DNA from: a virus
Strand: one strand, 5' to 3'
DNA: 64,000 nt
Virus record (IMG/VR): IMGVR_UViG_3300037423_000480
Span: 9,223 to 73,222 of that record
Shown one piece after another: positions 6,310-45,398 of this stretch (positions are counted from its first letter, which is position 1; each line of letters starts with the position of its first letter). A program made the position numbers and the translations under genes. Below the pieces are notes generated by a model. That model did no database searches, was not told where the DNA came from, and worked only from the letters and a program-made list of their open reading frames with translations.

Positions 6310-7048
6310 TCATCCGGTCGGCCTCGCGCGGCGCGACCGGCGACTGTTCGACCCGGTCACGGCTCTCGTCGTCGGCGGTTCCACGCTTCTCGGCGCCAAG
6401 ATGGCATCCAATGCCAGCGAGAGCGCCGCGCAGACACAGGCGAACGCCACAGACCGCGCCACCGACGTGCAGGCCGCGAACCTGCAGCAGATCCGTGACA
6501 GCCTCCAGCCGTTCATCAACAGCGGCTACGACGCCCAGGGGATGCTACGCAACCTGCTCGGCATCGGCACGCCGACCGACAGCGGCAGCTTCGGCAGACT
6601 GATGAAGCCGTTCGACGCCACTACCTGGCAGCAATGGAAGGACCCTGGCTACGACTTCCAGCTCAAGCAGGGCCAGCAGGCGCTGCAGAACAGCCAGGCG
6701 GCCAAGGATGGCGTGCTGTCCGGCGCGGCGCTGAAGGACCTGATCGGCTTCAATCAGGGCATGGCGAGCACCGCCTACCAGAACGCCTTCAGCCGGTATA
6801 TGACCCAGAACGACACGACCTACAACCGTCTCGCGTCTCTTCTGAACTTGGGAGAGAGCGCGGCCGCCGGCGTGGGCAACACCAGCGCGCAGGTGACTTC
6901 GAACATCGGCCAGAACATTACGTCCGCCGGCAACGCGCTGGCGGCCGGCCAGATCGGTTCGGCCAATGCTTGGAGCGGCGCGCTGAACAATATGGGCAGC
7001 ATGTACATGCTCAGCAAGATGCCGGGCTTTACCGGCGCGGGGAAATAA
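6284..7048 (+). CDS. DNA ejection (pilot) protein, P22 gp7-like
   Basis: Ala/Gly/Gln/Asn-rich, 'DPGYDFQLKQGQQAL' motif, first of three ejection-type genes. Confidence 0.72.
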   Translation: MRNHPALLDHPVGLARRDRRLFDPVTALVVGGSTLLGAKMASNASESAAQTQANATDRATDVQAANLQQIRDSLQPFINSGYDAQGMLRNLLGIGTPTDSGSFGRLMKPFDATTWQQWKDPGYDFQLKQGQQALQNSQAAKDGVLSGAALKDLIGFNQGMASTAYQNAFSRYMTQNDTTYNRLASLLNLGESAAAGVGNTSAQVTSNIGQNITSAGNALAAGQIGSANAWSGALNNMGSMYMLSKMPGFTGAGK

Positions 7049-7049
7049 C

Positions 7050-8519
7050 ATGCCGATCGATCCATCCATCCCCCTGCAGGCGCAGGCCCCGTCCTTCGAC
7101 ACTTCGCTCAAGCCGATCGCGTCGATGCTGGGCATCGCTGGCGCACAGCAGCAGCTGCAAACCGGCCGCCTGCAGCAGAATCAGCTTCAAGGACAGGTTC
7201 AAGAGCGCGAAAACCTCTCGAAGATCGACTGGAACCAGTTCCGCGGCGAAGACGGCAACCTTGACCCGGTCGCCGCAGGCAACGCAGCGCTGAAGGCCTC
7301 GCCGGCGTTCTACGGGCCCCAGCTCGCGAAGCAGTTCAACGAGGTCGCGAAGGACCAGATCACGATCAAAAAGGGCCTGCAGGACCTGAACCAGAGCCAG
7401 CGCACCGATATTGGCTCCGGCCTGGGCGCGCTGTCACTCGACCCTGAGCTCTCGCCGCAGAAGGTGATGAGCTGGGCCGCGCAGTTCAGCGAGCAAAATC
7501 CGGGCGCTGCGCCGCTGCTGTTCACCGCGATCAAGCACATGCCGAGCGACCCGGCCCAGCTAAAGCAATGGCTCGTCACCAGCCGCAACAGCGTGCTCGC
7601 GCCGAGTTCGCAGACCACGGCAACCACGCCGATCAGCACCGGTGGCGATACCCGCTTCGTGCAGACCAGCCCGTACCAGCCTGGTTCCATCCAGCAGGTC
7701 GGCCAACCGATCGCGAACACGGTCACGCCGACGCAGGCCGAGGAAGTCCAGACCGACTCGCTGGGCAACAAGTACATCGTGCAGCGCGGTGCAAACGGAG
7801 TTATCCTCGGCACCCGGCCGGTGCCGGGCTCGTACAACGCGGTCAGCAGCGCTCCTGGTTCCGGTCCCGCAATGCTGCCGCCCGGTGGCGCCGGATCGAT
7901 CGACGACGCGCAGAAGGAAGTCACCGCAGCGCGCGCGGCCGCGAACAACGCGCCGGTCATGCACGACCTGAACCGCGGCATCATCGCCGAAGTCGACAAA
8001 GGGATGAACACCGGTTCGCTGGGCTCGCTTACGCAGAAGATCGCCAGCGCCACCGGCTACAACCTGGGCAGCGAGAGCTCGACCGACTACAACGTGCTCG
8101 GCAAGCTGCTCGAGCGCTCGGCGCTGCAGGCCGCCCAAGGCATGGGGCCGCACACCAACGCCGGCCTCGAGGCCCAGGTGCGCGCGAACGGTTCCCTCGA
8201 CTACACGCCCCAGGCCATCCGCAAGATCGCGGTTCTCAATGACGCGCTGACCACCGGAGCCGAACACTACCGTACCGGCATGGAGCAAGCGTTGCAGGCT
8301 TCTGGCCAGAACCCGGCCGTCAAGCGGGTATTCGACCAAGGCTGGGCACAGAACTTCGACCCGCGCATCATGCGCCTGGAGAACGCGCGTGCCTCCGGCG
8401 ACCAGCACGAGATCGACGCGGTGATGCGCGAGCTTGGCGGCCCGAAATCGCAGGCGACCCGTGACTTGATGACCAAGGCGCGCAACCTGAACATGCTGAT
8501 TCAACAGGGGCATCTGTGA
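7050..8519 (+). CDS. DNA ejection protein
   Basis: 489 aa helical Gln/Ala-rich protein in the ejection gene position. Confidence 0.62.
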   Translation: MPIDPSIPLQAQAPSFDTSLKPIASMLGIAGAQQQLQTGRLQQNQLQGQVQERENLSKIDWNQFRGEDGNLDPVAAGNAALKASPAFYGPQLAKQFNEVAKDQITIKKGLQDLNQSQRTDIGSGLGALSLDPELSPQKVMSWAAQFSEQNPGAAPLLFTAIKHMPSDPAQLKQWLVTSRNSVLAPSSQTTATTPISTGGDTRFVQTSPYQPGSIQQVGQPIANTVTPTQAEEVQTDSLGNKYIVQRGANGVILGTRPVPGSYNAVSSAPGSGPAMLPPGGAGSIDDAQKEVTAARAAANNAPVMHDLNRGIIAEVDKGMNTGSLGSLTQKIASATGYNLGSESSTDYNVLGKLLERSALQAAQGMGPHTNAGLEAQVRANGSLDYTPQAIRKIAVLNDALTTGAEHYRTGMEQALQASGQNPAVKRVFDQGWAQNFDPRIMRLENARASGDQHEIDAVMRELGGPKSQATRDLMTKARNLNMLIQQGHL

Positions 8520-10903: not shown

Positions 10904-12820
10904 ATGGCAAGCTTGATGCCAACCGGGAAGCAGCAGTATTTCAATCCTACGAGCGGCCGTCCCCTGTCTGGAGGACTGCTCTACACCTACGCGGCCGGCA
11001 CCTCGACACCGAAGCCGACCTATCAGGATGCGGCCGGAACAATTCCGAACACGAATCCTATCACGCTCGATTCAACGGGCTCAGCGCTCGTCTATTGGGA
11101 TGGCTCATACAAAGTCGTGCTCAAGGATTCGTCGGAGAACACGATCTATACCGTTGACAACTATAACGAGTTGTCTGGATTGCTGTCCGGCCCAACCGGT
11201 ACGTCGCTCGTCAAAGGTACATGGTTCGGCGGCGTCGTGAAGACCGTTTCGTCGCTGGCCATGGCGGTTGGCGCCTCACTGATTGGGTGGGCCAATGCCG
11301 GCACTGCCGTCTCCGTGGAACAAGGCCTTAACATTCTCTACGAAGGCAGTGCACACGTCAGTAACCCGCGTTTTGCCGGCGGCGCCAAAGGCGACGGCGG
11401 AACCGACGACACCGCAGCGATTCAGGCCGCAATCAACAACGGCGGCAACGTGCACTTCACGGCCGGGGCGACCTACAAGATCACGTCGCCACTGACGCTG
11501 GATATCTCGCTGGGCTCTATGCTCGGGTGCGGCAGCGTGATCGACGCGTCTGCCAGCGCGACCGGGGCGCTGCAGGTGTTCTCCAGTGCCACCTATGGTT
11601 CCCAGCGCCTGGACCGCAACTGGACCCACTGGATCGAGGGTATCGCCTTCGAGGGCAACTACCTCGCCGCGCAAGACCTGGTGACGATCGGGCATGCCGA
11701 CTACCTGAACAACAGCGAAATCACGTTCCGCAACTGCGGCTTCCGGCGCGGCGGCAAGCTGGTCAAGTTCATCGACAACGCGTGGCGCGTCAACTTCGAC
11801 CATTGCGGCTTCGAGACGCCCGTTAGCTACTACCTGCACTTCGACTCGCGCGCAAACGCCGGCGAGCTGATGCGCTTCTCGCACTGCTGGTTCGTCGACG
11901 GTACCAACGCCTACATCTACCTGCACGAGGGCCAGTGGGTGTTCGATACCTGCTCGTTCCCCGGTGGCGGCATCGGTGGCATCCAGTGCGTCGGCGCGCC
12001 GCACGTCGTGATCCGCAACTGCAATCTCGAGGCCCAGGCCGCTTCAGCGACTCAGTACATGGTCGAAGGCTATGGATCGTCCTTCATCCTGATCGACGGC
12101 TGCGTCATCTCTACCAACGGCGGCCAGGCCAAGCAGGCACTGCTTTCCGCGAACGACGCGTGCGGCCTACGCATCGTGAACTGCACGTTGCCACTGTACG
12201 GCACCGACCTGCGCTCCGAGACCAACAGCGGCATCCGGCAGCTCGTGGCTGGGAATTCTCAGTACGTCTCGGCAGAGAACAACTACATCAAGGGAACAGG
12301 CGCGAACGACCGTACACAATGGGCTGTGCTCGGAAAACAGTTCAACAAGCTGCGCAACGGCGACGCGGAGCTCGGCAACACCAACGGCTGGACCGTCACC
12401 ACCTACGGCGCCGGCGCGCCGAGCCTGACGCCCTTTACCGCCGTGGCCGCCGGCCAGAAAAACGGTTCGTACTGCTTCAAGGTGGATTGCACCGTTAGCA
12501 GCCAGGTCATGGCCAGCCAATTGATTAGCGGCGCCTCCGCCTACGTTGGCAGGGCCGTGGTGTACGGCATGTGGGCCAAGGCTGTCGGTGGCGTGGGCAA
12601 TGTGGACTTCCCAACGGTTCAATTTCTGGACGTGGCTGGTGCGGTAATCAGCAGCGCTGCGATTGCCACGTCGGCTGCGGATGCGGCGTGGACTTGGATC
12701 GGCGGCTACAGCGTGGTCCCGGTTGGCACCGACCGAATGCAGTTCTTGGTCGGCGGACAGGAGCAGGCCGCCGGCGCCCACCAGGTGTACTACGACGACA
12801 TCGTGCTGAACATCATCTGA
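10904..12820 (+). CDS. Tailspike / polysaccharide depolymerase (beta-helix)
   Basis: N-terminal head-binding-type segment, pectate-lyase-3-like motif 'GAKGDGGTDDTAAIQAAIN', C-terminal CBM-like 'LRNGDAELGNTNGW'; GAGG RBS before 10904. Confidence 0.85.
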   Translation: MASLMPTGKQQYFNPTSGRPLSGGLLYTYAAGTSTPKPTYQDAAGTIPNTNPITLDSTGSALVYWDGSYKVVLKDSSENTIYTVDNYNELSGLLSGPTGTSLVKGTWFGGVVKTVSSLAMAVGASLIGWANAGTAVSVEQGLNILYEGSAHVSNPRFAGGAKGDGGTDDTAAIQAAINNGGNVHFTAGATYKITSPLTLDISLGSMLGCGSVIDASASATGALQVFSSATYGSQRLDRNWTHWIEGIAFEGNYLAAQDLVTIGHADYLNNSEITFRNCGFRRGGKLVKFIDNAWRVNFDHCGFETPVSYYLHFDSRANAGELMRFSHCWFVDGTNAYIYLHEGQWVFDTCSFPGGGIGGIQCVGAPHVVIRNCNLEAQAASATQYMVEGYGSSFILIDGCVISTNGGQAKQALLSANDACGLRIVNCTLPLYGTDLRSETNSGIRQLVAGNSQYVSAENNYIKGTGANDRTQWAVLGKQFNKLRNGDAELGNTNGWTVTTYGAGAPSLTPFTAVAAGQKNGSYCFKVDCTVSSQVMASQLISGASAYVGRAVVYGMWAKAVGGVGNVDFPTVQFLDVAGAVISSAAIATSAADAAWTWIGGYSVVPVGTDRMQFLVGGQEQAAGAHQVYYDDIVLNII

Positions 12821-12830
12821 TAGGGCGAAG

Positions 12831-13076
12831 ATGGAAAACACAACCGCACAACAAAACGCGATTGAGCTCGCCGCCATGCGGGTCGAGGTGGCGCACCTAA
12901 AGCTGGCTGTGGCTGACCTCCGTGACACCAACAAGCAGCAGAACGAAAAGCTGGACAAGGTTCTGGCGCAGCTGGCTGAGGCCCGCGGCGGCTGGCGCAC
13001 CCTGATGTTAATTGGCGGTGCCGCCGGGACGCTCGGCAGCGGCATCACTTGGATTCTTTCACACCTGAGGACTTGA
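12831..13076 (+). CDS. Holin-like membrane protein (coiled coil + C-terminal TM)
   Basis: 81 aa immediately upstream of the endolysin. Confidence 0.55.
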   Translation: MENTTAQQNAIELAAMRVEVAHLKLAVADLRDTNKQQNEKLDKVLAQLAEARGGWRTLMLIGGAAGTLGSGITWILSHLRT

Positions 13077-13078
13077 CC

Positions 13079-13561
13079 ATGAGCTTCGACCAAGCTTTCG
13101 CCACCATCGCCAGCATCGAAGGCGGCTTCACCGACCGCGACCGGCAGGCCGACCCCGGCGGCGCTACCAAGTACGGCGTTACCGAGCGCGTTGCTCGCAG
13201 CTGGGGCTACCAGGGCGATATGCGCGACCTTCCGCTGGACACCGCCAAGGCCATCGCCAGGACCTGGTACTGGGACAAATACCAATGCGACCAGTTCGAC
13301 CCGCGCATCGCCTACCAGGTCTTCGATACAGCCTACAACGGCGGCTACCCGGTCAAGTGGCTGCAGGAGTGCGTCGGGTCGACGCCGGATGGCGTGATCG
13401 GCGCGAAGACCATCGCCGCGGTGCGTGCGGCCGACGCGGCCAAGGTAGTCGCGCAGTTCAACGCCAAACGGCTGCTGTACCTCACCGAGCTGCAGAACTG
13501 GCCGCAGAACGCGCGCGGCTGGGCGCGACGGATCGCCAACAATCTCTTGATGGGAGCATAA
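13079..13561 (+). CDS. Endolysin, glycoside hydrolase family 108
   Basis: 'EGGF...DPGGATKYGVT' catalytic motif and C-terminal 'ARGWARR' PG-binding motif; GAGG RBS before 13079. Confidence 0.9.
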   Translation: MSFDQAFATIASIEGGFTDRDRQADPGGATKYGVTERVARSWGYQGDMRDLPLDTAKAIARTWYWDKYQCDQFDPRIAYQVFDTAYNGGYPVKWLQECVGSTPDGVIGAKTIAAVRAADAAKVVAQFNAKRLLYLTELQNWPQNARGWARRIANNLLMGA

Positions 13562-13563
13562 GC

Positions 13564-14070
13564 ATGGAATGGCTTAAACAAATCGCGCCTTCGCTGGCAA
13601 CCGCCCTCCTCGGCCCGCTCGGCGGTGCTGCGGTATCCGCGATCGCCTCGGCGCTTGGCATGAGCGATGCCGATAAGGCCAAGGTCGAGGCCGCACTGAA
13701 GAGCGGGCAGCTCTCGGGCGAGCAACTCGCAGCGATCCAGCAGAAGGAAATCGAGTTCAAGGCGCAGATGGCGCAGCTCGGGGTCGACCTCGAGAAGATC
13801 GCTTCCGCCGATCGCGCCAGTGCGCGGCAGATGCAGGTCGAGACCAAGAGCCTGGTGCCGGCCGCGCTGGCGGTCGTAGTCGTGCTGGCGTGGGTGGCGA
13901 TCCAGTGGTATCTGCTCGGGCATGTGGTCGACGCCAGCATGCGCGAGCTGGTAGCGCGCGTGCTCGGCACACTCGACGCGGCGCTGACGCTGGTCCTGTC
14001 GTTTTACTTCGGGTCGTCGCGCGGGTCCCAGGACAAGGACGACACGATCAACAAGCTGTCCGGCGCATAA
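13564..14070 (+). CDS. Putative 3-TM holin (GTA-holin-like)
   Basis: N-terminal hydrophobic helix, coiled coil, two TMs, 'SFYFGSSRGSQDK' ending. Confidence 0.65.
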   Translation: MEWLKQIAPSLATALLGPLGGAAVSAIASALGMSDADKAKVEAALKSGQLSGEQLAAIQQKEIEFKAQMAQLGVDLEKIASADRASARQMQVETKSLVPAALAVVVVLAWVAIQWYLLGHVVDASMRELVARVLGTLDAALTLVLSFYFGSSRGSQDKDDTINKLSGA

Positions 14071-14088
14071 CCTCTCCCGCCTGGCCGG

Positions 14089-14565
14089 CTACTTCAGCGG
14101 CCAGAACCACACCTCGCTCGACAGCCAGTAGCAGTCCTCCTCGCAGGCCAGGTCGCTGGCTCCCCACGGCGCCACCATGTCGATATGCCCTTGCGGATCC
14201 GAGGGAGTCCACAGGTGGTGGAAGCTGATCACGCCGCGGCGACCGCGGATTCCCTTGTACGCCGCCGGGCCTCCCTGGTACTTTTCAGGCGCTCCCCACA
14301 GCCGCACCAGCATGTTGGACAGCTTCACCTGTCCGGGCTCGATCAGCTTCCCCTTGCATTCCCCGGCGAGCACGCGCACTCGGCCTGGCACCGGCACCCC
14401 GCAGCGCACGAGAGCGAGACTCATCCGAACTGCGCAGGTATTCGCCCACTGCGCGTTGGTAGCATACTCGGCGGGGTAGCCGATCCACACGTACAGTTCC
14501 TCGGCACTGATCGAGCGCCGGTCAGGGTACTTGCTGCGCAGGACAGCGTAAAGCGGCTTATGCAT
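14089..14565 (-). CDS. tae4: Type VI secretion peptidoglycan amidase effector, Tae4 family
   Basis: 'NTCAVRMS' catalytic Cys motif, 'GHID' His motif, 'CYW..SEVWFW' C-terminus; no signal peptide. Confidence 0.9.
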   Translation of the reverse strand: MHKPLYAVLRSKYPDRRSISAEELYVWIGYPAEYATNAQWANTCAVRMSLALVRCGVPVPGRVRVLAGECKGKLIEPGQVKLSNMLVRLWGAPEKYQGGPAAYKGIRGRRGVISFHHLWTPSDPQGHIDMVAPWGASDLACEEDCYWLSSEVWFWPLK

Positions 14566-14911
14566 GGCAGCACCTCGCCGTGCACGGCCACTTTTCGCGC
14601 CACGCCTGGATGGCCAGTACCGCGGCGCTTTGCCGGGCCTGCGCCGGCGGCAAGCTTCGCAGCTTGTCCGTCAGCGCAGGTTGCACCAGTCCGGTCCCGG
14701 GTTTGGTCGCGCTGTAGCACCACTCGCGATCCGCGGTGGCGTCCATCACACCCTGCAGGTAGGCGGAAGTCGCTGTTGCCTCGGCCTGGCTGGCCGGCCG
14801 ATCCAGTTTGCGCAGCAGCTCGGCGCCGCTCACCCATGGGAAGGGATGGGTCGCGACGGGTTCGGCAAATACTGGCAGCGCTAACGCCAGAAGAATGAGC
14901 GCGCGCATCAT
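14558..14911 (-). CDS. Periplasmic immunity protein, Rap1a/Tai4 family
   Basis: Signal peptide (MMRALILLALALPVFA), 'SGAELL...AYLQGVMD...C...WPC' pattern; start overlaps hcp stop (ATGA). Confidence 0.82.
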   Translation of the reverse strand: MMRALILLALALPVFAEPVATHPFPWVSGAELLRKLDRPASQAEATATSAYLQGVMDATADREWCYSATKPGTGLVQPALTDKLRSLPPAQARQSAAVLAIQAWREKWPCTARCCHA

Positions 14912-15399
14912 GCGAACCTGTTCGTGGCGAGATCCCAGCCGCCAGCCGTGTTGCCACTGGCACCGCCGCCCACCTTCTGCTGTGTATAGCGCCACCGGAT
15001 TTTCGAGAACTTCAGGCCCAGGTTCTCCATCGGCTGGCCACCGCCGTCGAAGCTCGGCGCCACGTGCGCGATCAGCACGTTCTCGAGCTCGATCTCGTAA
15101 TACTTGATCGGCTGCCCGTTGCCGTCCGCGCGCTGCATTTCCAGCTTGGCCTTCGGGATCGTTTTCCCCATCGCGCAATACTGCGCCAGGATCGGTGACG
15201 ACAGGTCGACCAGCTTGGCGATGCTGATGTCGCTCAGCTCGGCGCGCTCGGCGGTGTGGCCGCCGCCAGTCGATGCCGTGGCCGATTTAGGCTGCCGGAT
15301 GTCGTAGTTGATCGACATGCACTCAATCCAGCCGGGGTGCTTCGAGTCCCCCGACTCGCCCTTGATACCTTCGATTTGCAGGTAGAAGTCCGCTGCCAT
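14908..15399 (-). CDS. hcp: Type VI secretion tube protein Hcp (Hcp1 family)
   Basis: 'FYLQIEGIKGESGDSKHPGWIE', 'KLVDLSSPIL', 'Y.IELENVLI', 'GWDLATN' hallmarks; GAGGAG RBS. Confidence 0.96.
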   Translation of the reverse strand: MAADFYLQIEGIKGESGDSKHPGWIECMSINYDIRQPKSATASTGGGHTAERAELSDISIAKLVDLSSPILAQYCAMGKTIPKAKLEMQRADGNGQPIKYYEIELENVLIAHVAPSFDGGGQPMENLGLKFSKIRWRYTQQKVGGGASGNTAGGWDLATNRFA

Positions 15400-15462
15400 G
15401 TTGCCTCCTCGTTAGTGATGAGGCATCGTCGCAGGATTGCGTTTACTGCAACTTGTTTACGG

Positions 15463-15675
15463 TCAAGACTCGCTCGGCGGCAGGTCAAGCGGGCGGCGTC
15501 GGCTGGGCTCGGCCAGCACGCGCACGATGGTCGAGAAGCTGGCGCCGGCTTCGGTCAGGAACGTGCTCGCGGCACGCTGGCCGTCTTCGTTCAGCAGCTC
15601 AAGTGCCTGATCGACCGCGCGGGCCAGTTCTTTGTTGGCACGGCTGCCGGGATGGGGGATGGCGAAATTAGTCAT
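15463..15675 (-). CDS. Hypothetical helical protein (70 aa), upstream of hcp
   Basis: ORF with TATTCT -10-like hexamer 6 nt before ATG. Confidence 0.55.
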   Translation of the reverse strand: MTNFAIPHPGSRANKELARAVDQALELLNEDGQRAASTFLTEAGASFSTIVRVLAEPSRRRPLDLPPSES

Positions 15676-15740
15676 CCGCGCAGAATAGCGGCCCGGCGCC
15701 GCGCCAAAGTGCGTTGGCTCAACAATGCTACACTCCGCGC

Positions 15741-16040
15741 ATGAAAGTCACCGTCACCCGCCTTCGCGAGCGCGGCAAGCGCCGCAGCGACCACCAGATA
15801 GCGGCCGACCCGGGCACGGTTGGCGACCTCACGATGGCCGCTGTCGGCGGAATCATGCAGCTGAACCTGGCCGCTTTTGACGACCAGCAGATGAAGCCTC
15901 TCATCCCGGTCCTGTATCAGGCAGAGCTCGTTACCATGCATGGCAACGGCATGCTGTTCCGCGGCTACGAGAGCGTGGACGGCGCTGGGTATGTGCAAGA
16001 ATGGCGGGCGATCCTTTACACCGGAGGCAGGCATGGGTAA
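15741..16040 (+). CDS. Hypothetical prophage protein (99 aa)
   Basis: ATG 6 nt after extended -10 TGcTACACT; plausible protein composition. Confidence 0.6.
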   Translation: MKVTVTRLRERGKRRSDHQIAADPGTVGDLTMAAVGGIMQLNLAAFDDQQMKPLIPVLYQAELVTMHGNGMLFRGYESVDGAGYVQEWRAILYTGGRHG

Positions 16041-16272
16041 CGCAACCGAGCTCGAACGGGCAGTCGACAAGCTCCATCGTGTGCTGCATAGGCTGAACGT
16101 CTACAACGGCGCGGCGCTGATTCAGGAAGGCGAGCGTGTGACGATGGACCTGGGCGAAGAAATTGGCGATCTGAAAGATGCCCTGCGGCTGCTGGGCGCC
16201 GATCCGGGCACGCACGTGCCGCTACCGCCAGAGGACCCGGCATGGACTACGCGCACGGCGGGTGATTCGTGA
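16033..16272 (+). CDS. Hypothetical protein (79 aa)
   Basis: GGAGG RBS; overlaps upstream gene. Confidence 0.55.
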   Translation: MGNATELERAVDKLHRVLHRLNVYNGAALIQEGERVTMDLGEEIGDLKDALRLLGADPGTHVPLPPEDPAWTTRTAGDS

Positions 16273-16303
16273 CGCGTTCCTGCCGAACTGAGCAAATCGG
16301 GGC

Positions 16304-16325
16304 TCAGGGAAAAACTCAGGGAAAA
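16304..16325 (+). repeat. Direct repeat pair TCAGGGAAAA (12-bp period), candidate integrase arm sites
   Basis: Exact 10-mers at 16304 and 16316, ~80 bp left of the att core. Confidence 0.55.
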
Positions 16326-16406
16326 TGGAGTGGTAGCGCAGGGGTACTGTAGGGGCCGCTTCCCTATGAGCGACTCCCCCGGTTTCCCCTTACTTACCCT
16401 TGAAAC

Positions 16407-16450
16407 AGGTTCATAGCCTATCGGGGGTTCGAATCCCCCTCTCTCCGCCA
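16407..16450 (+). other. att core: 3' fragment of tRNA-Ser (variable arm, T arm, acceptor 3' strand, CCA)
   Basis: AGGTTCATAGCCTATCGGGGGTTCGAATCCCCCTCTCTCCGCCA; no D arm, anticodon arm or 5' acceptor strand upstream; adjacent to integrase. Confidence 0.88.
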
Positions 16451-16458
16451 AGGATTCT

Positions 16459-16484
16459 AAGCCCCTGATTTCAGGGGCTTTTTT
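16459..16484 (+). terminator. Terminator hairpin after att core (could act on both strands)
   Basis: AAGCCCCTGA-tt-TCAGGGGCTT + TTTT. Confidence 0.75.
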
Positions 16485-16504
16485 ATTTGTTCCGCCGCTT
16501 TCGC

Positions 16505-17686
16505 TCAGACGGCCTCATCGGCTTGGGGAAAAGCCGGGGAAAAATTGGCGATGCCGGCGTCCAGTTTGTCCATCTCGCGCTGGTCATCCGCGCTGCTGAT
16601 CCACTTGGCGTAGACCTCGAAGAACATCCGTAGGCTGTGCCCCAGTTGGGCCGCCATGAATCCCGGCTTGATTCCGTTCATCAGCCCAATCGTCGCGTAG
16701 GAATGCCGCATGTTGTAGGGGCGCCGGTAGCGGATGCCCAACTTCTTGAGGTCCGGCGCCCAGAAGCTGCGCACATCGGTGATCTTCCTGTAGCTCCACG
16801 GCTCGCCCGTGTACGGGTCGTGGAACACGTGCTTGCCTGCCAGCCGGGTGTGTGCCTTCTGCCGCTCCAGCGCCTCAAGGGCAGCCTTGGACAGCCTCAC
16901 GATCCTCGACGCATAGGTCTTGGTCGAATCGGTTTCCTCATCGTAGACGTTGGCGCCGTCGATCAGCATCTCCCGTTTCCGGACGTCGATGTCGCCCCAC
17001 TGCAGGGCGATTCCCTCGGACGTGCGCAGCCCGGTGAAGAACATGAACTGGACGAAGTTGGCGACCTGGTCGTGTCGGTGAGCGCGCAGGTACCCGATGA
17101 TCTGGTGTACCTCCTCCAGGTCGAACGGATCGGGCGCTGGCCCCTGGTAGCCTGCGCGCTTCACTTCCGCGCACGGGTTTTCCGAGATCAGCTTGTCGAG
17201 CCGCGCCATCTCAAACACGCCGTTAATCAGCGACAGCTCGTTATTGCGGCTTTTCCCGCTCTTCCACGTCCCCTTCGCGAGCGCCTCGAGGATTTGCGAG
17301 TAGGTCACGGCGCCGATCGGCTGGTCCGGAAGGGCGGATTTCCAAAAATTCCGGATCCGGTTGCGGTACTGATCCTTGGTCGACTTCTTGCCGTCATACA
17401 GGCGAACGAACTTGTCCATCTGCGCATGCAGCATCGGCACATCCGCAACCTGTTCAACCGCTTTGGCCCGGGGCGAGTGCGGGAAGTAGGACGCATAGTC
17501 GAAGGTGCCGGCCGCGATCTTGGTCCTGATCTCCTCGGCCAGGCGCTTCGCATACTTGGCGTTGGCAGGCGTCGGCGCGGCCGGCGCGTCGTCGATGTAG
17601 AGCGTCTCCTTCCTTGGCTTGCCGCGATAGTGGAAGTAAATCCTGATGCTCTTTTCCCGCAGCTCTACTCCGCCTGTTCCACCCAC
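16505..17686 (-). CDS. int: Tyrosine integrase with N-terminal arm-binding domain
   Basis: R (FTGLRTSE), 'YNMRHSYAT', 'LGHS', Y (VYAKW); GTG start at 17686 with GGAG RBS. Confidence 0.95.
   Translation of the reverse strand: MGGTGGVELREKSIRIYFHYRGKPRKETLYIDDAPAAPTPANAKYAKRLAEEIRTKIAAGTFDYASYFPHSPRAKAVEQVADVPMLHAQMDKFVRLYDGKKSTKDQYRNRIRNFWKSALPDQPIGAVTYSQILEALAKGTWKSGKSRNNELSLINGVFEMARLDKLISENPCAEVKRAGYQGPAPDPFDLEEVHQIIGYLRAHRHDQVANFVQFMFFTGLRTSEGIALQWGDIDVRKREMLIDGANVYDEETDSTKTYASRIVRLSKAALEALERQKAHTRLAGKHVFHDPYTGEPWSYRKITDVRSFWAPDLKKLGIRYRRPYNMRHSYATIGLMNGIKPGFMAAQLGHSLRMFFEVYAKWISSADDQREMDKLDAGIANFSPAFPQADEAV
16523..16544 (+). repeat. Repeat pair (TT/CC)GGGGAAAA (12-bp period), candidate arm sites inside int 3' end
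   Basis: TTGGGGAAAA at 16523 and CCGGGGAAAA at 16535. Confidence 0.45.
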
Positions 17687-17862
17687 TTGTAATACTCCTG
17701 AAGATTCATCGTGATGTGCCCGTCCGGGGCCTTCTTGTAGTGCTTGTTTCGCAGCCAGATGCCGTCCTCGATCTTCCGGCGCACCGCCTTGTCGGTATAG
17801 CCGGTGATGCTGCAGAACATGGGCACCAGCATCCACCGCAGTTGGATTCCCGTGTCATCCAT
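17665..17862 (-). CDS. xis: Excisionase
   Basis: 65 aa wHTH-like 'FCSITGYTDKAVRRKIEDGIW...KAPDG'; overlaps int start. Confidence 0.88.
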   Translation of the reverse strand: MDDTGIQLRWMLVPMFCSITGYTDKAVRRKIEDGIWLRNKHYKKAPDGHITMNLQEYYKWVEQAE

Positions 17863-38289: not shown

Positions 38290-39603
38290 ATGCTGGAAAA
38301 ACTGAAACTGTGGGCCGCACGGCGCCGCAACGAGCCGCAGCGCGACACCACGGCCTACGCCAGGCTGTCGTCCATCGGCGTGTACGGCGCCAGCCGGCAC
38401 CGGCCGCTGGTCAAGGCCACGCCCGGCAACCTGCGGCGCTTCGCCAACACCCCGTATGCGCGGCGCGCGATCAACGCCATCAAGAACCCGATCGCGATGC
38501 TCGAATGGGAGGTGCGGCCGATCAAGGGCGTCAAGCTCAACTCGACGCTGCAGCGGCAGGTCGACATCGCCACCGCCTGCCTGAAGAGCCCGAACCACGA
38601 CGACTCGGACCGTACGCTGCGCGAGCAGGTCGTCGAGGACATGCTGATCGCGGGCGCCGGTGCGATCGAGCAGCAGGTCGGTGGCGACGCCGCGCGTCCG
38701 CTGTGGCTGTGGCCGGTGGATTCGACCTCGATCCAGATCTACCCCGGCTGGTCCGGCGACAAGCGCGAGGCGCGCTACCGGCAGGTGATCGGCGCCAATT
38801 CAGTCGGTCTGCAGCAGGGGGAAGACCTGCGCAACGACGAGCTGATCTACATCCGCCTGGACACCAACACCGCCAGCCCGTATTCGTACGGGCCCCTGGA
38901 GACGGCGTTTTCCACCATCAGCCGCCTGCTCGGCGTGGCCGAGTACGCGGGCAACGTCGCAGGCAACGCTCAGCCTGGCTTTGCGCTGTACGGCGGCGAC
39001 ATGGACCAGCCGACGTTGGAGGCGTTCCGGCGCTATTGGCGCGACGAGATCGAGGGCCAAGGCAACACCCCGATCCTGGGCGGCAAGCTCAAGCCGGAAG
39101 TGGTGCGGATGCACGGCGGCGGCGACGAGGCGCTTTACCTGAAGTACCAGGCCTTCGTGATCCGCGAGCTGGCCGCGGCGTTCGGCATCAGCCCGCTGAC
39201 GCTCGGCCTCGAGGGCGACGTCAACCGCAACACCGCCGAGGTCACCGACGAGAAGGACTGGAACCTCACGATCAAGCCGATGGCGAAGCTGTACGCGGCG
39301 CACCTGACGCGCGAGGCGATACAGGGAAGGCTCGGCTTTTCGCAGCTCGAATTCGCGTTCCTCGGGCTGGACCTGGACGACGAGAAGAACCTGGCCGAAG
39401 TGTTTGCGATCGAGTACGAGAACAACGCGGCGACGCCGAATGAATACCGCGAGTCGCGGGGACGGCCGCCACTGACTTCGTTCTGGGCCAACCTGGTCAG
39501 GGCTGACGCCGAAGTGGCGGCGCGCGCAGCGCAAGGCGCGCAGGTAATCGACGATCCGAATCTCCCGCCGGCCGTGCCGGCTCAATCAAAAGGAAAGGAC
39601 TGA
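38290..39603 (+). CDS. Portal protein
   Basis: 437 aa after terminase; 'LWLWPVD', 'ELIYIR', 'TPNEYRE..G.PPL'. Confidence 0.88.
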   Translation: MLEKLKLWAARRRNEPQRDTTAYARLSSIGVYGASRHRPLVKATPGNLRRFANTPYARRAINAIKNPIAMLEWEVRPIKGVKLNSTLQRQVDIATACLKSPNHDDSDRTLREQVVEDMLIAGAGAIEQQVGGDAARPLWLWPVDSTSIQIYPGWSGDKREARYRQVIGANSVGLQQGEDLRNDELIYIRLDTNTASPYSYGPLETAFSTISRLLGVAEYAGNVAGNAQPGFALYGGDMDQPTLEAFRRYWRDEIEGQGNTPILGGKLKPEVVRMHGGGDEALYLKYQAFVIRELAAAFGISPLTLGLEGDVNRNTAEVTDEKDWNLTIKPMAKLYAAHLTREAIQGRLGFSQLEFAFLGLDLDDEKNLAEVFAIEYENNAATPNEYRESRGRPPLTSFWANLVRADAEVAARAAQGAQVIDDPNLPPAVPAQSKGKD

Positions 39604-39604
39604 C

Positions 39605-39952
39605 ATGGCACGCAACGCAGGCAAGGCCGCGGCTGAAGGCGCTGGCGAACTGGATGTGAACCTGAATACCACGTCTGGCGACACCGCCGGCACGCCCCCT
39701 GGCGCACCCGAAGCACCGGAGGCGGCCGGCACCGATGTCGCCTATACCGATCAGGCCAAGCCGATAACCCTGCTGCAGCGGCTGCAAGAGCACATCGCGA
39801 CGGCCGAAAAGAACGGTGATCACGCCGGCGCGGGCGTGCTGCACAACATGGAGGTGCGTGTCAGCGAGCTGAAGCGGCACGCGGCCGATGCTGCGTCGAT
39901 GCTGGAAGGCGAAGCGGCCGAGCTGCTGGGCGCCCTCCGCGACCACCTGTAA
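39605..39952 (+). CDS. Hypothetical protein (115 aa)
   Basis: AAGGA RBS; between portal and protease. Confidence 0.6.
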   Translation: MARNAGKAAAEGAGELDVNLNTTSGDTAGTPPGAPEAPEAAGTDVAYTDQAKPITLLQRLQEHIATAEKNGDHAGAGVLHNMEVRVSELKRHAADAASMLEGEAAELLGALRDHL

Positions 39953-39973
39953 TCCGATCCCGCGGGGGCAGGA

Positions 39974-41368
39974 ATGACCAAACTCGAGAGAAAAACACGG
40001 GATGCGCTGCCAGACAGCGACTTTGCCGTGCCAACCAAGCGCGCAATGCCGATCCATGATGCCGACCACGTGCGCATGGCCTGGAACATGGTTGAGCGCA
40101 TGGACCTCAGCGCGGCCGCGCAGGACGAGGCCCGCAAGCGCATTCTGGAGCGTGCCGAGATGCTGGGCGTCGATACCGCGAGCTGGCAAGCGGCGCCCGG
40201 CCGCTTCACGCTGGCCGGGGGCTCGCTCGAGCTGGCGGCTGCCGACGGCTCGCACCCGAACAAGCACCCGTTCAAGGGCATCCTGACGCGACTGGATGCG
40301 GCCAGCGACAAGCCGCCCGGCGGCTCCGAAGGCAAGCGCGTGCTGCTGCCGACCACGGTGGCGGCGAAGTCGCTCAGCACGCTGGTCGGGATGGCGGTCG
40401 ACTTCACGGCCAAGCTCGACGGGCACGACAAGCGGAGCAAGATCGGCTTGATCGAGGCTGCCTACATCGAGGGCGACGCGCTCTGGATCGAAGGTTTTTT
40501 CTACGCAGCCGACTTCCCCGAGGAAGTTGCGCGCATTCAGGCTGAACAGGCGTCCCTGGGCTTCTCGTACGAAGTGCAAGCGGCTATTCAGTCCCCTAAT
40601 GCCGATCCGTTGGTGATCAGTGGCTGCACATTCACGGGCGCTGCGGTCCTCTACAAGGCCAAGGCTGCCTATACCACCACCTCACTCGCCGCGCATGCGG
40701 ACATGGAGATTGATATGACCCCTGAAGAACTGAAAGCGGCCCTCGGCGGCGTGCTGGCCGAGCAATTGGGCCCGCTGTCCGCGCGCCTCGACAAGCTGGA
40801 AGCCTCGGCCGAAAAGACGCTGGCCGCTGCCGCCGTCATCGAGCGCGTCAAGGAGCACGCCACCGCGCTGAAGACCGTCGCTGATGCGATGGAAACCGAC
40901 GGCATTGGCCTGGACCCGGAATACGGCCACGTGGTCATGCTGCGCAAGCTGGCCGGCAACATGGAAGCCGCCGCCGCCCAGGGCCGCGTGCCGTACAGCA
41001 TCGAGGGCTACGTCTACACCGCCGCTGCTGCACCGGCTGCTGCCGCGCAGACCACCCAGGTCGCAGTCGCAGCCGCAGCCACGCAAGCGGCACCGGCCGC
41101 CGATAAAACCACGCTCGACGCGATCGCTGGCCTCGAAACCAAGGTGGCCGACCTGCAGGCCGCCGCGTTCAAGGGCGCGCAGGAACCCGAGCGCAAGACG
41201 CTGTCGCCCGCGATCCTGACCCTGGTCGCGAAGGCCGGCATCACGATGCCGGGCGAAGGCGAAAAGCTCGACGTGGCCACTGTGGACGCGGCGCTCGACA
41301 AGGCGGGCCTGGACCGCACGAAGCGCATCGCAGTCAAGCAAGGCCTGATGATGCAGGGCGCGCTGTAA
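39974..41368 (+). CDS. Prohead protease/scaffold fusion with extra N-terminal domain
   Basis: Central 'H...KIG.I..A......L..EG....ADFP...LGFSYE...FTGAAVL' protease-like segment; Ala-rich coiled C-terminus; upstream of capsid. Confidence 0.7.
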   Translation: MTKLERKTRDALPDSDFAVPTKRAMPIHDADHVRMAWNMVERMDLSAAAQDEARKRILERAEMLGVDTASWQAAPGRFTLAGGSLELAAADGSHPNKHPFKGILTRLDAASDKPPGGSEGKRVLLPTTVAAKSLSTLVGMAVDFTAKLDGHDKRSKIGLIEAAYIEGDALWIEGFFYAADFPEEVARIQAEQASLGFSYEVQAAIQSPNADPLVISGCTFTGAAVLYKAKAAYTTTSLAAHADMEIDMTPEELKAALGGVLAEQLGPLSARLDKLEASAEKTLAAAAVIERVKEHATALKTVADAMETDGIGLDPEYGHVVMLRKLAGNMEAAAAQGRVPYSIEGYVYTAAAAPAAAAQTTQVAVAAAATQAAPAADKTTLDAIAGLETKVADLQAAAFKGAQEPERKTLSPAILTLVAKAGITMPGEGEKLDVATVDAALDKAGLDRTKRIAVKQGLMMQGAL

Positions 41369-41408
41369 GCGTTCGGCCCTTCCAAAACCTCATTCGAAAG
41401 GAAACACC

Positions 41409-42389
41409 ATGACTGGTGAATTCAAAGCGCTGTCGGCCGCCGCCGACCAACTGGGCACCGGCGCCGTCGAAGTGCCGATGTTCGAATCCGAGATTCTCGA
41501 CGTCGTGCGCCGCACGTCGGTAGCGCTGCAGCGCATGCCTGGTCGCCGCGCCACCGGCCACCCGCACCGCTACTTCGAGCAAACCGCGATCGCGACCGGC
41601 GGCTTTACCGACCCGCGCAACATCACCACCAGCGCTACCGGCCCGACCCGTGTCGAGCGCGCCGCGATGATCAAGGCGATCACCGCACAGTCGAACATCG
41701 GCAAGTTCGACCAGGACGTGACCGAGCAGCAGGGCCAGTTCGCATCGGTCGTGGCGCAGGACATCGACGATATCGCCTCGGGCGTGGTCGTCGCCTCGGC
41801 CAAGGCGCTGTGGAACGGTAACGACACCAGCCTGTCGACGCCGACCACGACCCAGTACGTCGGCCTGCTGACGCAGATCACGCAGACCAGCCAGATCGCG
41901 GCCGGCGCGTCGATCATCGACGGCCTAAAGACGATGGTGGCGAACATGTTGGCCAACCAGACCTTCGTGGTGCGTCCGACTGCGATCTACATCAACCCCC
42001 TGCTGGCCGACCTGATCGACCAGGAAGCCAAAACCTTCCACCGCGACCTCGATACCGTGGAGGTGGCTGCGGGCGTGACCGTGAAGGCGATCTCGACGCA
42101 GGCCGGCGTGCTGCCGCTGATCAGCGACTCGTTCATCCCGACCGACACCACCGCCCAGTACGGCTTCACGGCGCCGGCCGCCGGCAAGAAGAACTACTAC
42201 GCGGTGATCCTGAGCGAGCGTCATGTCGAGCGCCCGTACATCTCGGGCAAGGAAGATAACCCGCTGCCGCGCATCTTCCAGCTCGGTCTGGTCGGTAACC
42301 TCGCCGGCCAGCACGTCGGCGCGATGTTCGACTGCGTCATCGCCAAGGGTGCCAGCTACAACCACGCGGTGGTCTGCGTCACCGCCTGA
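41409..42389 (+). CDS. Major capsid protein (HK97 fold)
   Basis: 326 aa, position, AAGGA RBS, strongly biased codon usage. Confidence 0.8.
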   Translation: MTGEFKALSAAADQLGTGAVEVPMFESEILDVVRRTSVALQRMPGRRATGHPHRYFEQTAIATGGFTDPRNITTSATGPTRVERAAMIKAITAQSNIGKFDQDVTEQQGQFASVVAQDIDDIASGVVVASAKALWNGNDTSLSTPTTTQYVGLLTQITQTSQIAAGASIIDGLKTMVANMLANQTFVVRPTAIYINPLLADLIDQEAKTFHRDLDTVEVAAGVTVKAISTQAGVLPLISDSFIPTDTTAQYGFTAPAAGKKNYYAVILSERHVERPYISGKEDNPLPRIFQLGLVGNLAGQHVGAMFDCVIAKGASYNHAVVCVTA

Positions 42390-42465
42390 TTCCCGGCGGG
42401 CCGATGCAAGGCCATTCCCTTACCCGGAGTGGCTTTCTGTAGGCCCGTCACACCAAGGATTCCCC

Positions 42466-42708
42466 ATGTATGTCTACCGCAAGGGCTGCCCCAACAAGCC
42501 GGGCCGTCATTGGCTGCAGGTGCAGCCGGCGCGCCTCTCGAACGACCATCCCAGCGACTGGCTGGACGAGCAAGGGCAGCCGCGCATGTTCAACATCGAA
42601 TTCATGCACGGCCGCACATCGGTTCCCGACAACCTGGGGCGCTGGCTGGTCGACCATGGCTATGCGCAGGAAACCGCACTGATTCTGCCGGCCACCGTAC
42701 AGGGATGA
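42466..42708 (+). CDS. Hypothetical head-associated protein (80 aa)
   Basis: AAGGA RBS before 42466. Confidence 0.6.
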   Translation: MYVYRKGCPNKPGRHWLQVQPARLSNDHPSDWLDEQGQPRMFNIEFMHGRTSVPDNLGRWLVDHGYAQETALILPATVQG

Positions 42709-43613
42709 ATATGAACCTTTACCTACAAGGTGACGACCTGTCAGCATACGGCACGCCGAGTGCCGGCCGGGCCCAGGTGCGAGCGGCATCGGTCCTGATC
42801 GACAGCTTCCTGCAGCGTCCGGAAGGACTGCTGTACACGGCGGACGCCGCCGGCAACCCGTGCTTTATGGCCGGGATGGCGCCGGTGGCCAGCTTCTCTT
42901 GCGTCGCGCCGATCAACCCGGGCAGCAACGTGGTCGTCACCTTGAACGGCCCCTTGGCGCTGCTCGAGGTCGGCAAGGTGTTGATCCTTGACCGCGCCAA
43001 TGCGCAGCTTGTCGAGCCAGTGCTGGTCACGGCGGTGTCCGGCAACCAGGTAACCCTGGCATCGGTGGCGCTCACCCATGCGGCCGGCGCACAGCTGGAT
43101 GCCGGACTGGTCATTCAAGAGGAGAAGTTCATGCCGGAGGGGCGACCACTGACCGCGGTCTCGCGCGCGCCGGTTCTGCGCCTGCTCGCTGGACAGGGCC
43201 GCTACGGCTACGGCCGGCGCGGGCGCGTCAACGCCTTCGCGATGGACGACTTCAACCTGCTGGCCACCATGACCCATTTCGGCGGGCCGCCGCAGTGGGA
43301 GGGCTTCGACGTCGCGCATGCGGGCTTCGAACCGCACACCGGCAAGGTATGGATCCCGTCCGGCGTGCTGCTGGCCTACTTCTCCGAGGTGCGCCTGCAG
43401 TATGTCGCCGGCTACACCTACGCGACGTTGCCTGCGGCCGTGAAGCAGGCCTGCGCCAACATCATCAACGCGGCAGCGAACTTCCCCATGCTTAACGGGA
43501 ACATCCAGCAACTGACCTCGGGCGATACCCAGGTCAAGCGCTTCGCGGACACCGTGCTCGACGCCGACACGAAGGCGATGCTGGGCCCGTATGTGGCGAG
43601 GGCATTTGCATGA
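42705..43613 (+). CDS. Head-tail connector protein
   Basis: 'AASVLIDSFL', 'YVAGY....LPAAVKQAC', 'LGPYV' gp6/gp15-like motifs with an inserted beta domain. Confidence 0.72.
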   Translation: MNMNLYLQGDDLSAYGTPSAGRAQVRAASVLIDSFLQRPEGLLYTADAAGNPCFMAGMAPVASFSCVAPINPGSNVVVTLNGPLALLEVGKVLILDRANAQLVEPVLVTAVSGNQVTLASVALTHAAGAQLDAGLVIQEEKFMPEGRPLTAVSRAPVLRLLAGQGRYGYGRRGRVNAFAMDDFNLLATMTHFGGPPQWEGFDVAHAGFEPHTGKVWIPSGVLLAYFSEVRLQYVAGYTYATLPAAVKQACANIINAAANFPMLNGNIQQLTSGDTQVKRFADTVLDADTKAMLGPYVARAFA

Positions 43614-43948
43614 ACGCGCTGCGTCCCCGGACGATCACCATCAAGCGCAACGCCCCGCAGACCGGCGTCGGCGCGGTCGGCTACGGCGGCGTGACCGCAG
43701 CCGACGAGAAAGTGATCCTCGAAGACATCGAGGCATCGATCCAGAACACGCGGATCGGGCGCGACAACAAGGTTGGTCTGCCAATGGACCGGCAGCAATC
43801 CACCTGGAAGATTTTCTATCAGGCCGACCCGACGCTGGTGCGCGATAACGACCTGATCTACGACGACCTTGGGCGCCGGTTTCGAATCATCGCCGCCTAC
43901 CCGCACGCGCTGGGCTACACCAGCACCTGCGAACAGCTTGAGGTATAG
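43610..43948 (+). CDS. Head closure / head-tail adaptor protein
   Basis: 'VRDNDLIYDDLGRRFRI' and position. Confidence 0.65.
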   Translation: MNALRPRTITIKRNAPQTGVGAVGYGGVTAADEKVILEDIEASIQNTRIGRDNKVGLPMDRQQSTWKIFYQADPTLVRDNDLIYDDLGRRFRIIAAYPHALGYTSTCEQLEV

Positions 43949-43950
43949 AT

Positions 43951-44859
43951 ATGTACGGCGACGCACTCCTCTGCACACACGACGGCACTGGTGGATCCGG
44001 TGCGCTGACCTGCGTCCGCATTCCCGGATTCCCGCTGCCGAGCGACATCCCGGGGCTATCCGGCGCGATACAGGTTGCCTACCAGGCCACCGAGTACAGC
44101 GACAGCACCAGGGTGACGCCGGTTCAGTACGAGCGGGGGATCGGCACGTTTGACTTCGCAACCAAGGTCCTCACCCGCACCTCCGTGCGCGAGACCTGGG
44201 TCGCAACCGGCGCCGTGATCAACGTTGCCAACCCGAGCGCACTCACCTTCGGCAATACCGCCGCTAATATTGAGATAGCCTTCGGGGCCTCGGCGGTTTC
44301 ACAGTCGCCCGCGCTGCCGGGCGTCCCCAACTACGGGGGCGACGCGTACGCGCCGGCTAACTCGCTGATGGCGCTTGACACCAACGCTGGCAGCACGACC
44401 CTGACCGCTGGCCGCCGAAACTATCTGCCGTGCAAGTACACGTACGGCAAGCCGATCAGCACCATTGGCGTGATCGCCGGGTCGGTCGCGACGACGGGTA
44501 ACGTGCGCATCAGCGCCTACGAATGGCGCGCGGATGGCGTACCAGGCGCGCTGATTACGGAATTTACCAGCGCGACGCAAATCGGCATCAACACGGCTAC
44601 CGGCATGAAGTCGATCACGCTGGGGACGCCGTTCTGGTTGCCGCCCGGCTGGTACTACTTCATGGTCCAGGCGGACGCCGCAGTTCAACTGATTTCAGCG
44701 ATCCCTTACGCGAACTGCGGCGCGGGCATCATCAACACCCGCGACGTGATGTCAGCGTACAAGGACGCGACCTACGGCGCGGCACCAACGACCGCTGACA
44801 CCGGGCTCAATGGCGTTACCCGCAGTTCCGGCAACCAAATTGCGATATTCGTGAAATGA
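43951..44859 (+). CDS. Fibre-like structural protein
   Basis: 'YERGIGTFD...LTR' N-terminal motif of fibre proteins; Gly/Thr-rich beta C-terminus; followed by a chaperone-like gene. Confidence 0.55.
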   Translation: MYGDALLCTHDGTGGSGALTCVRIPGFPLPSDIPGLSGAIQVAYQATEYSDSTRVTPVQYERGIGTFDFATKVLTRTSVRETWVATGAVINVANPSALTFGNTAANIEIAFGASAVSQSPALPGVPNYGGDAYAPANSLMALDTNAGSTTLTAGRRNYLPCKYTYGKPISTIGVIAGSVATTGNVRISAYEWRADGVPGALITEFTSATQIGINTATGMKSITLGTPFWLPPGWYYFMVQADAAVQLISAIPYANCGAGIINTRDVMSAYKDATYGAAPTTADTGLNGVTRSSGNQIAIFVK

Positions 44860-45398
44860 CCTACGACGACGCCCACCAGATTACTTTCCCGCCCGGGACG
44901 TACCATGGCCTCGGGGAAGCGCTAGCCGCTACGGGGCTTGCGCTGGAAAATAACAACGGCCGATGGTACGCCAGCGACCCGCAAGCGGTCCTCGCGTTCA
45001 TCGCTGGTTTCGACCCGCTGCCGGGTCAGCGCAAGGCGCTGTGGGCCAGCGTGGCAGATGACCAAATCCGCCGGCAGCAGCTCGGGGTCCCGTACACGTT
45101 CCCTGATGGCCAGGCGGGGACCATCCAGACCCGCAACGAGCAGGACCTCTTGAACATCAACGGCCTCGCAACCCGCGCGCTCATGGCACAAGCGGCAGGC
45201 GTGACCGAACCGGTGTTCGGGTTCCGCGACGAAGAAAACCGCTCGCACTCAATGACGCCGGCTCAGGTTCTTGACCTGGCCGTCGCGGCGTCCAACTTCG
45301 TCGAGGCGCTCTATACCGCGAAGTGGGCGCACGACAGCGCCATTGCGACGTGGGACGGTTCGAGCCAGTACGACCTGGGGGCCTACTGGCCGGAATGA
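44856..45398 (+). CDS. Fibre assembly chaperone-like protein (DUF4376-like)
   Basis: 'IQTRNEQDLLNING...FRDEEN....T.AQV..L'. Confidence 0.65.
   Translation: MTYDDAHQITFPPGTYHGLGEALAATGLALENNNGRWYASDPQAVLAFIAGFDPLPGQRKALWASVADDQIRRQQLGVPYTFPDGQAGTIQTRNEQDLLNINGLATRALMAQAAGVTEPVFGFRDEENRSHSMTPAQVLDLAVAASNFVEALYTAKWAHDSAIATWDGSSQYDLGAYWPE

Follow-up and report, generated by a model that had tools for sequence, protein, structure and literature searches.

Here, we describe a short three-gene cassette, hcp-rap1a/tai4-tae4, which occupies positions 14089-15399 on the minus strand of a 64,000-nucleotide stretch of viral DNA (hereafter the window; bases 9223-73222 of the 78.5-kb IMG/VR record IMGVR_UViG_3300037423_000480). 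It encodes a type VI secretion system (T6SS) carrier protein, a presumably periplasmic immunity protein of the Rap1a/Tai4 type and a Tae4 peptidoglycan amidase, and it lies, apparently within one arm of a temperate podovirus (prophage 1), between the lysis genes and a tRNA-derived attachment (att) site. We consider it likely that the cassette is a lysogenic-conversion moron in the arm of a P22-like phage of Massilia (Oxalobacteraceae), arming the T6SS of the host; expression, cargo loading, secretion, killing and excision are the steps of this reading that we infer. Carriage by phages as such is supported by the relatives of the cassette, which include loci in several phage backbones, a nearly closed circle and a prophage bounded by tRNA-Leu.

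The identity of the cassette as Hcp, Rap1a/Tai4 and Tae4 with intact catalytic residues is confirmed by profile searches, in which all three proteins scored above the curated Pfam gathering scores, and by matches to solved structures. The hcp gene (14908-15399, minus strand) encodes a T6SS tube/carrier protein of 163 aa that matches T6SS_HCP (PF05638; E 3e-39; 134.7 bits, cut-off 23.5) over profile positions 1-129 of 129. Downstream follow the immunity gene (14558-14911, minus strand; 117 aa; Rap1a, PF18602; E 3e-11; 44.1 bits, cut-off 27.7) and the effector gene tae4 (14089-14565, minus strand; 158 aa; Tae4, PF14113; E 8.5e-14; 52.1 bits, cut-off 27). The hcp stop and the rap1a start overlap by 4 nt (ATGA), and the end of rap1a overlaps the start of tae4 by 8 nt. 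Both the coordinates with their overlaps and the three family assignments had been proposed in a first-pass annotation made from the sequence without database searches, and both were borne out. The order of carrier, immunity and effector genes is that of the Agrobacterium hcp-tai-tae operon.

In a search of the sequences in the PDB, the best solved structure for Tae4 was Serratia Ssp1 (4BI3, E 3e-27, residues 3-157), and Agrobacterium Tae4 (6IJF, E 4e-20) was matched as well. The catalytic Cys, within ANTCAVRMS, has its counterpart in C50 of Ssp1 (the residue changed in the mutant structure 4BI4), and the catalytic His, within GHID, aligns with the GHID of Ssp1. For the immunity protein, the nearest solved structures were Serratia Rap1a (4BI8/3ZFI, E 1e-5) and Agrobacterium Tai4 (6IJF, E 5e-4). 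Judged by eye, its N-terminus (MMRALILLALALPVFAEP) resembles a Sec signal, and the N-terminus of the 158-aa Tae4 (MHKPLYAVLRSKYPDRR) is devoid of a hydrophobic signal. Prediction of a complex between Tae4 and mature Rap1a gave a score of 0.01, which counts neither for nor against binding.

Prophage 1 is a P22-like temperate podovirus, as had been assumed at first reading, with a portal (phrog_156, E 8e-127), a major head (coat) protein (phrog_283, E 2e-63), a gp10-like head-closure protein (phrog_578, Hc3, E 2e-92) and a beta-helix tailspike (10904-12820; Beta_helix and pectate-lyase-like domains in Pfam). Unlike in P22, the lysis genes follow the tailspike. They comprise a GH108 endolysin gene (13049-13561, plus strand; Pfam Glyco_hydro_108, E 4e-23) and, at the end of the late operon, a holin-like gene with three transmembrane segments (13567-14070, plus strand; GTA_holin_3TM, E 0.002; phrog_1544). 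The tae4 stop lies 18 bp from the end of the holin-like gene, and the cassette runs antisense to the late operon. The moron position claimed for it, namely between the lysis cassette and an att-like tRNA fragment and opposite to the late operon, is therefore what we found.

Its place directly after the lysis cassette, and the fact that Tae4 and Tae2 are peptidoglycan amidases, could also be read to mean that Tae4 serves the phage, either as an additional lysin or as a wall hydrolase associated with the virion, and that Hcp is a tube-like phage protein, with the T6SS uninvolved. We give this reading hardly any credence. The cassette is oriented against the late operon and includes a cognate periplasmic immunity gene, its Hcp is 62-67% identical to Hcps encoded next to tssC, podoviruses of the P22-like kind lack a tail tube, and the Serratia and Agrobacterium counterparts, going by the titles of their PDB entries, work as a T6SS pair.

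The att site lies approximately 1 kb from the cassette. Its 44-nt core (16407-16450, plus strand) corresponds to the 3' end of tRNA-Ser(GGA), with 44/44 positions identical to that gene in Massilia solisilvae and M. rhizosphaerae, and we read it as a junction that is attR for prophage 1 and attL for prophage 2. The sequence 5' of the core bears no likeness to this tRNA, and ARAGORN found no intact tRNA in the window. Contigs from four soil/rhizosphere metagenomes branch exactly at 16407 into the 5' part of an intact tRNA, which marks this position as a recombination boundary. Soil and rhizosphere samples contain the sequence, with half or more of its sampled words present in 11 runs. Two prophages inserted in tandem at a single tRNA-Ser site would match this layout; the tandem arrangement and the tRNA-Ser att that had been suggested hold up. 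A second copy of the core was not found on the 78.5-kb record, neither by self-BLAST nor by short-word BLAST of the tRNA fragment, so that the attL belonging to prophage 1 and the attR belonging to prophage 2 must lie off the record. The transfer-messenger RNA gene was also considered as the att site and rejected, as the fragment in the window is not ssrA.

Related cassettes on viral contigs provide the main evidence for phage carriage. A profile search identified 32 IMG/VR contigs that encode this Hcp family. Rap1a and Tae4 genes lie downstream of hcp in 20 of them, and five hold a Tae2-like gene, in four cases with an immunity-like gene next to it. Integrase and/or lysis genes were located at most 6 kb away in 14 of the 32 contigs (both in six; small BLAST panel), and a frequent arrangement is that of a cassette flanked by an integrase on one side and by convergent lysis genes on the other; genes at related loci were called with a crude GC3-based caller. 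The contig IMGVR_UViG_3300046557_000504 (G001; 42,182 bp) is lambda-like, with a gpA terminase, an S49 protease and capsid E, and carries hcp-rap1a-tae4 between endolysin/spanin/Dam methylase genes and the integrase. Its two ends are parts of a single S49 protease gene, covering positions 4-107 and 115-152 of the Pfam profile; the contig therefore closes to within ~20 nt (~7 codons) and is probably a complete, circularly closed genome. On another contig (G004), the order is lysis/DUF1353 genes, which are related to those of prophage 2, then a Tae4 cassette and an integrase.

On contig L054, an intact tRNA-Leu(CAA) is followed by the integrase, hcp, rap1a, tae4, a gene of 284 codons, a convergent holin gene, the endolysin gene and J-type tail genes; the cassette is inside this prophage. 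The 284-aa gene (6590-7444, minus strand; phrog_13198), which sits between the lysis gene and tae4 and was missed by the GC3-based caller, is possibly another moron. Contig L053 has the same backbone as L054, and its slot (6504-7432) holds a Tae2-like gene and an immunity-like gene with a signal peptide, without hcp. The holin-like gene ahead of the cargo slot is 93% identical to that of the window in L053 and 88% in L054. Homology between L053 and the window spans the 18-bp spacer plus 20 nt of the 3' end of tae4 and then ends, a break that looks like the scar of a replacement, as if cassettes were exchanged at a fixed point. Metagenome contigs also break at window positions 14087-14112. We had considered L053, L054 and L055 as relatives of prophage 1 and rejected this, for all that they have in common with it is the last lysis gene (87-93%) and an endolysin that is distantly related; their tail genes are of the siphovirus type.

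The neighbouring prophage carries a cassette of its own. Prophage 2 is myovirus-type, and a second hcp lies at contig 77.6-78.1 kb, outside the window, in the same slot, where it immediately follows that prophage's own lysis/DUF1353 genes. This cassette (L003 8772-10140, equal to G000:C1 76.8-78.1 kb) consists of hcp2 (164 aa), a 142-aa Tae2-family amidase gene and a gene for a small signal-peptide protein. The effector gave no match in a Pfam search and was recognized as Tae2 by PDB sequence search (6WIN, E 8e-16). Both prophages of the array therefore carry Hcp, a wall amidase and a putative immunity protein in one slot, and the array as a whole appears to encode two different T6SS amidase weapons, Tae4 and Tae2. 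Nor is the trait specific to a podovirus, which corrects the first-pass annotation. Its statement that no other T6SS gene is present in the window stands for what we looked for, in that hcp2 is outside the window and neither TssC nor PAAR was detected on the whole 78.5-kb record, other families (e.g. VgrG, TssB, TssM) not having been searched.

Several smaller features of the two prophages were also noted. Between the cassette and the att core are orf70 (15463-15675, minus strand) and orf79 (16033-16272, plus strand), two small open reading frames, and orf108 (15714-16040, plus strand; phrog_5560, E 4e-6); at least 10 viral contigs have a homologue of orf108 beside an hcp cassette. A terminator (16459-16480) separates the att core from the integrase gene of prophage 2 (16505-17836, minus strand; Pfam Arm-DNA-bind_2 and Phage_integrase). 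Within the lysis cassette of prophage 2, an HNH endonuclease gene (L003 7346-7723, plus strand) is found between the glucosaminidase endolysin gene and an Rz-like lipoprotein gene. Besides, the replication/nin regions of the two prophages share stretches that are 77-94% identical (G000:C1 1-4346 versus 39318-44998), and these probably explain the assembly break at the start of the record.

A T6SS into which the phage Hcp might fit is widespread in the presumed host genus. The nearest genomic relatives are all Massilia, save one Stenotrophobium metagenome-assembled genome. TssC was present in 73 of the 81 Massilia genomes searched and in four of the five genomes that carry the cassette; to the check proposed in the first-pass annotation, for a core tss cluster elsewhere in the genome, TssC gives an answer at the level of the genus. 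Hcp1, the phage Hcp, is 62-67% identical to the tssC-adjacent Hcp of four Massilia genomes, and all fall into one family on the tree. The Tae4-linked Hcps form two well-supported clades, and Tae2-linked Hcps are 54-58% identical to Hcp1. That the Hcp clades follow the type of cargo would fit carrier-cargo matching; shared descent could also account for it. These Massilia genomes have between 3 and 24 hcp genes each. In M. rhizosphaerae (G006; 24 hcp versus 3 tssC genes) and in G005 (11 versus 1), most of them are orphans.

Upstream of hcp, a conserved promoter-like element and 5' leader (15400-15466, minus strand) was delineated by motif conservation among mobile hcp cassettes. In the window, it comprises a -35-like TTGACC (15461-15466) and TAAACG (15440-15445), then GATGCCTCATCA and then a GGAGG Shine-Dalgarno sequence. 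The shared motif reads TTGAC, 15 nt including AAGTTG, TAAAC, GATGCCTCATCA and GGAGG. It was found 5' of hcp in the mobile cassettes of hcp1, hcp2, G001, G002, G003, L054, L018 and L017, as well as 5' of the hcp-less tae2 cassette of L053, and it was not found 5' of those hcp genes of T6SS clusters that were compared. Motif and leader are common to cassettes that differ in Hcp clade and cargo (window, L003, L005, L006, L008, L017, L018, L053, L054), and the 140 nt around the hcp starts of the two prophages on the record are 87% identical. Judged by this conservation, the element is probably the cassette's own promoter. Within the leader, pairing of GCCTC with GAGGAGGC could mask the Shine-Dalgarno sequence.

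Taken as a weapon, the module would be read in the lysogen from its own conserved promoter and leader. Its orientation against the late operon, together with a probable promoter of its own, would lead one to expect expression in the lysogen. The phage Hcp would then join the tube of the host T6SS, with the small, signal-less Tae4 in its lumen, and Tae4 would cut the peptidoglycan of neighbouring cells in their periplasm, against which the Sec-exported Rap1a/Tai4 protein would shield the lysogen and its kin. Lysogens would thus kill non-lysogens, and loss of the prophage would leave a cell vulnerable to its lysogenic kin, so that retention of the prophage would be favoured.

Alternatively, the cassette may be phage-borne and act mainly as a shield or passenger, with the immunity protein guarding lysogens from Tae4-armed neighbours, and with hcp and tae4 adding little or the carrier staying unloaded. 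Tae4-armed neighbours are probably common, given the number of hcp genes per Massilia genome, the slot of L053 holds an effector-immunity pair without hcp, and orphan immunity islets are known from other genera (PMC7400221). Nevertheless, we regard this account as unlikely, for the three open reading frames are intact and overlap, 20 viral contigs have kept them as a set, Tae4 retains its catalytic Cys and His, and the Hcp clades track the type of cargo.

A number of points weigh against a phage-borne weapon that arms its host. The record begins inside prophage 1, whose left end, integrase and attL are off the record, and for this reason neither the integrity nor the excision of this copy of prophage 1 can be shown. 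The T6SS of the host is inferred for this record at the level of the genus Massilia. A standard sigma-70 scan of 13900-16600 called no promoter, the spacer of the motif being 15 nt long, and no RNA run was found that holds the stretch with the cassette. Among relatives, G001 is labelled linear and 73% complete by IMG/VR, its circularity resting on the contig ends. INPHARED, searched by blastn with the region and by tblastn with Hcp, contains no isolated phage with a close Hcp; the few matches to Hcp there were mislabelled bacterial contigs or tiny fragments. Finally, the cassette occurs without phage genes in isolate genomes, too (as an ssrA islet in M. solisilvae, and in M. rhizosphaerae), as well as in uncultured Massilia, so that phages are not its only carriers.

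The chromosomal copies in M. solisilvae JCM 31607 and uncultured Massilia follow gyrA-ompA-ubiG-gph-ssrA, and their Tae4 proteins are 68-74% identical. The M. solisilvae copy (L018 8430-12366) sits directly 3' of ssrA. As 15 nt of the ssrA end are repeated 3.6 kb further downstream, it looks like the remnant of an integrated element, a small and perhaps decayed islet. Such copies at ssrA, with no phage genes nearby, lend some colour to the view that the cassette in the window, too, is a chromosomal orphan T6SS islet that abuts prophage 1, with the true end of the prophage before 14089 and the cassette left unmobilised. IMG/VR provirus limits are imprecise, moreover, and many hcp matches lie near contig ends. 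We nonetheless hold this to be improbable. An attR before 14089, which the first-pass annotation had named as a finding that would refute carriage by the phage, was not seen: the att core at 16407-16450 is the sole one, and the gap of 18 bp between the lysis gene and tae4 contains no copy of the tRNA-Ser core. Over 11 nt, this spacer does partly resemble the end of the tRNA; we considered this as an att remnant and rejected it, since the spacer is also conserved in phage L053, and the twin backbone of that phage, L054, adjoins tRNA-Leu. Conservation in L053 extends to the 20 nt that follow the spacer; integrase and lysis genes flank the cassette in G001, L054 and others; and prophage 2 repeats the same layout.

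Coming back to the cassette as a weapon of lysogens, the comparison across loci allows a wider proposal, which we put forward tentatively and would not quite call probable. Hcp-effector-immunity cassettes would form a family of interchangeable weapon morons, alike in promoter and leader, with one dedicated slot, from the lysis genes to att/int, in at least four unrelated temperate Massilia phage backbones (the P22-like podovirus, a myovirus, a lambda-like siphovirus and a J-tail siphovirus). Phages would be a main vector of the many orphan hcp modules in Oxalobacteraceae (up to 24 per genome), and stacking of prophages at one tRNA would give rise to multi-weapon lysogens, in this record with Tae4 plus Tae2. 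What makes the unit attractive is that carrier, toxin, antidote and a putative promoter of its own are complete within 1.3 kb, a short length that fits a podovirus with headful packaging, and that one slot recurs across different soil phages with its cargo, Tae4 or Tae2, swapped. If the cassettes are functional, lysogeny of Massilia would alter which cells kill which in the communities of soil and rhizosphere, retention of the prophage would be tied to immunity, and the gathering of many orphan hcp genes in genomes would find an explanation. The cassette also offers a simple natural system, in a soil bacterium that is non-pathogenic, for testing Hcp-cargo specificity and phage-bacterium mutualism.

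With respect to known systems, the closest likeness at the protein level is to the hcp-tai-tae genes of Agrobacterium tumefaciens (6IJF) and to the Ssp1-Rap1a pair of Serratia marcescens (4BI3/4BI8), which share the three protein families with the cassette and, in Agrobacterium, the gene order. These pairs reside in main chromosomal T6SS clusters, whereas the present cassette stands by itself as an orphan module in the arm of a prophage and has a promoter-like leader. Orphan modules of hcp and effector genes have been described elsewhere, with DUF4225 effectors beside hcp in Pantoea and Vibrio (10.64898/2026.08.01.741415). As in our case, a small cargo effector is encoded together with an additional Hcp that shares ~67% identity with the Hcp of the cluster, yet these modules are found in chromosomal hotspots or on plasmids rather than inside a phage genome.

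Our searches of the published literature turned up no Hcp-Tae module carried by a phage. Nevertheless, the novelty claimed in the first-pass annotation was too strong, since phage-borne T6SS auxiliary (aux) clusters have already been published (PMC11481896, PMC13366799). In Ralstonia, phiRSY1-like myoviruses, siphoviruses and inoviruses carry vgrG-linked T6SS aux toxin clusters, and for phiRSY1 carriage was confirmed by virion sequencing (PMC11481896). Like the cassette, these are toxin-immunity modules of temperate Burkholderiales phages that use the T6SS of the host; they differ in relying on VgrG spikes and lipase, nuclease or unknown toxins, where here an Hcp carrier is paired with a Tae4 or Tae2 amidase, in Massilia and with one P22-like backbone. 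The Burkholderia gladioli phages Mana and AB4 carry a PAAR-TseV-TsiV cluster (PMC13366799), likewise a moron of carrier, effector and immunity genes, and one that is present in isolated temperate phages; in contrast to the cassette, its carrier is PAAR, its toxin is a VRR-Nuc nuclease and the backbones are those of myoviruses. In Vibrio cholerae, the T6SS effector-immunity module Aux3 is part of an element that resembles a prophage and has both an integrase and att sites (10.1101/868539; PMC7721734). Unlike the cassette, it combines PAAR with a hydrolase and lacks Hcp, and the element is a degenerate one rather than a tailed phage that is complete. That phages carry T6SS modules is thus already known, and the cassette extends this by the Hcp-cargo (Hcp-Tae) type, adding a further route to the transfer by phages of toxin modules linked to vgrG and PAAR.

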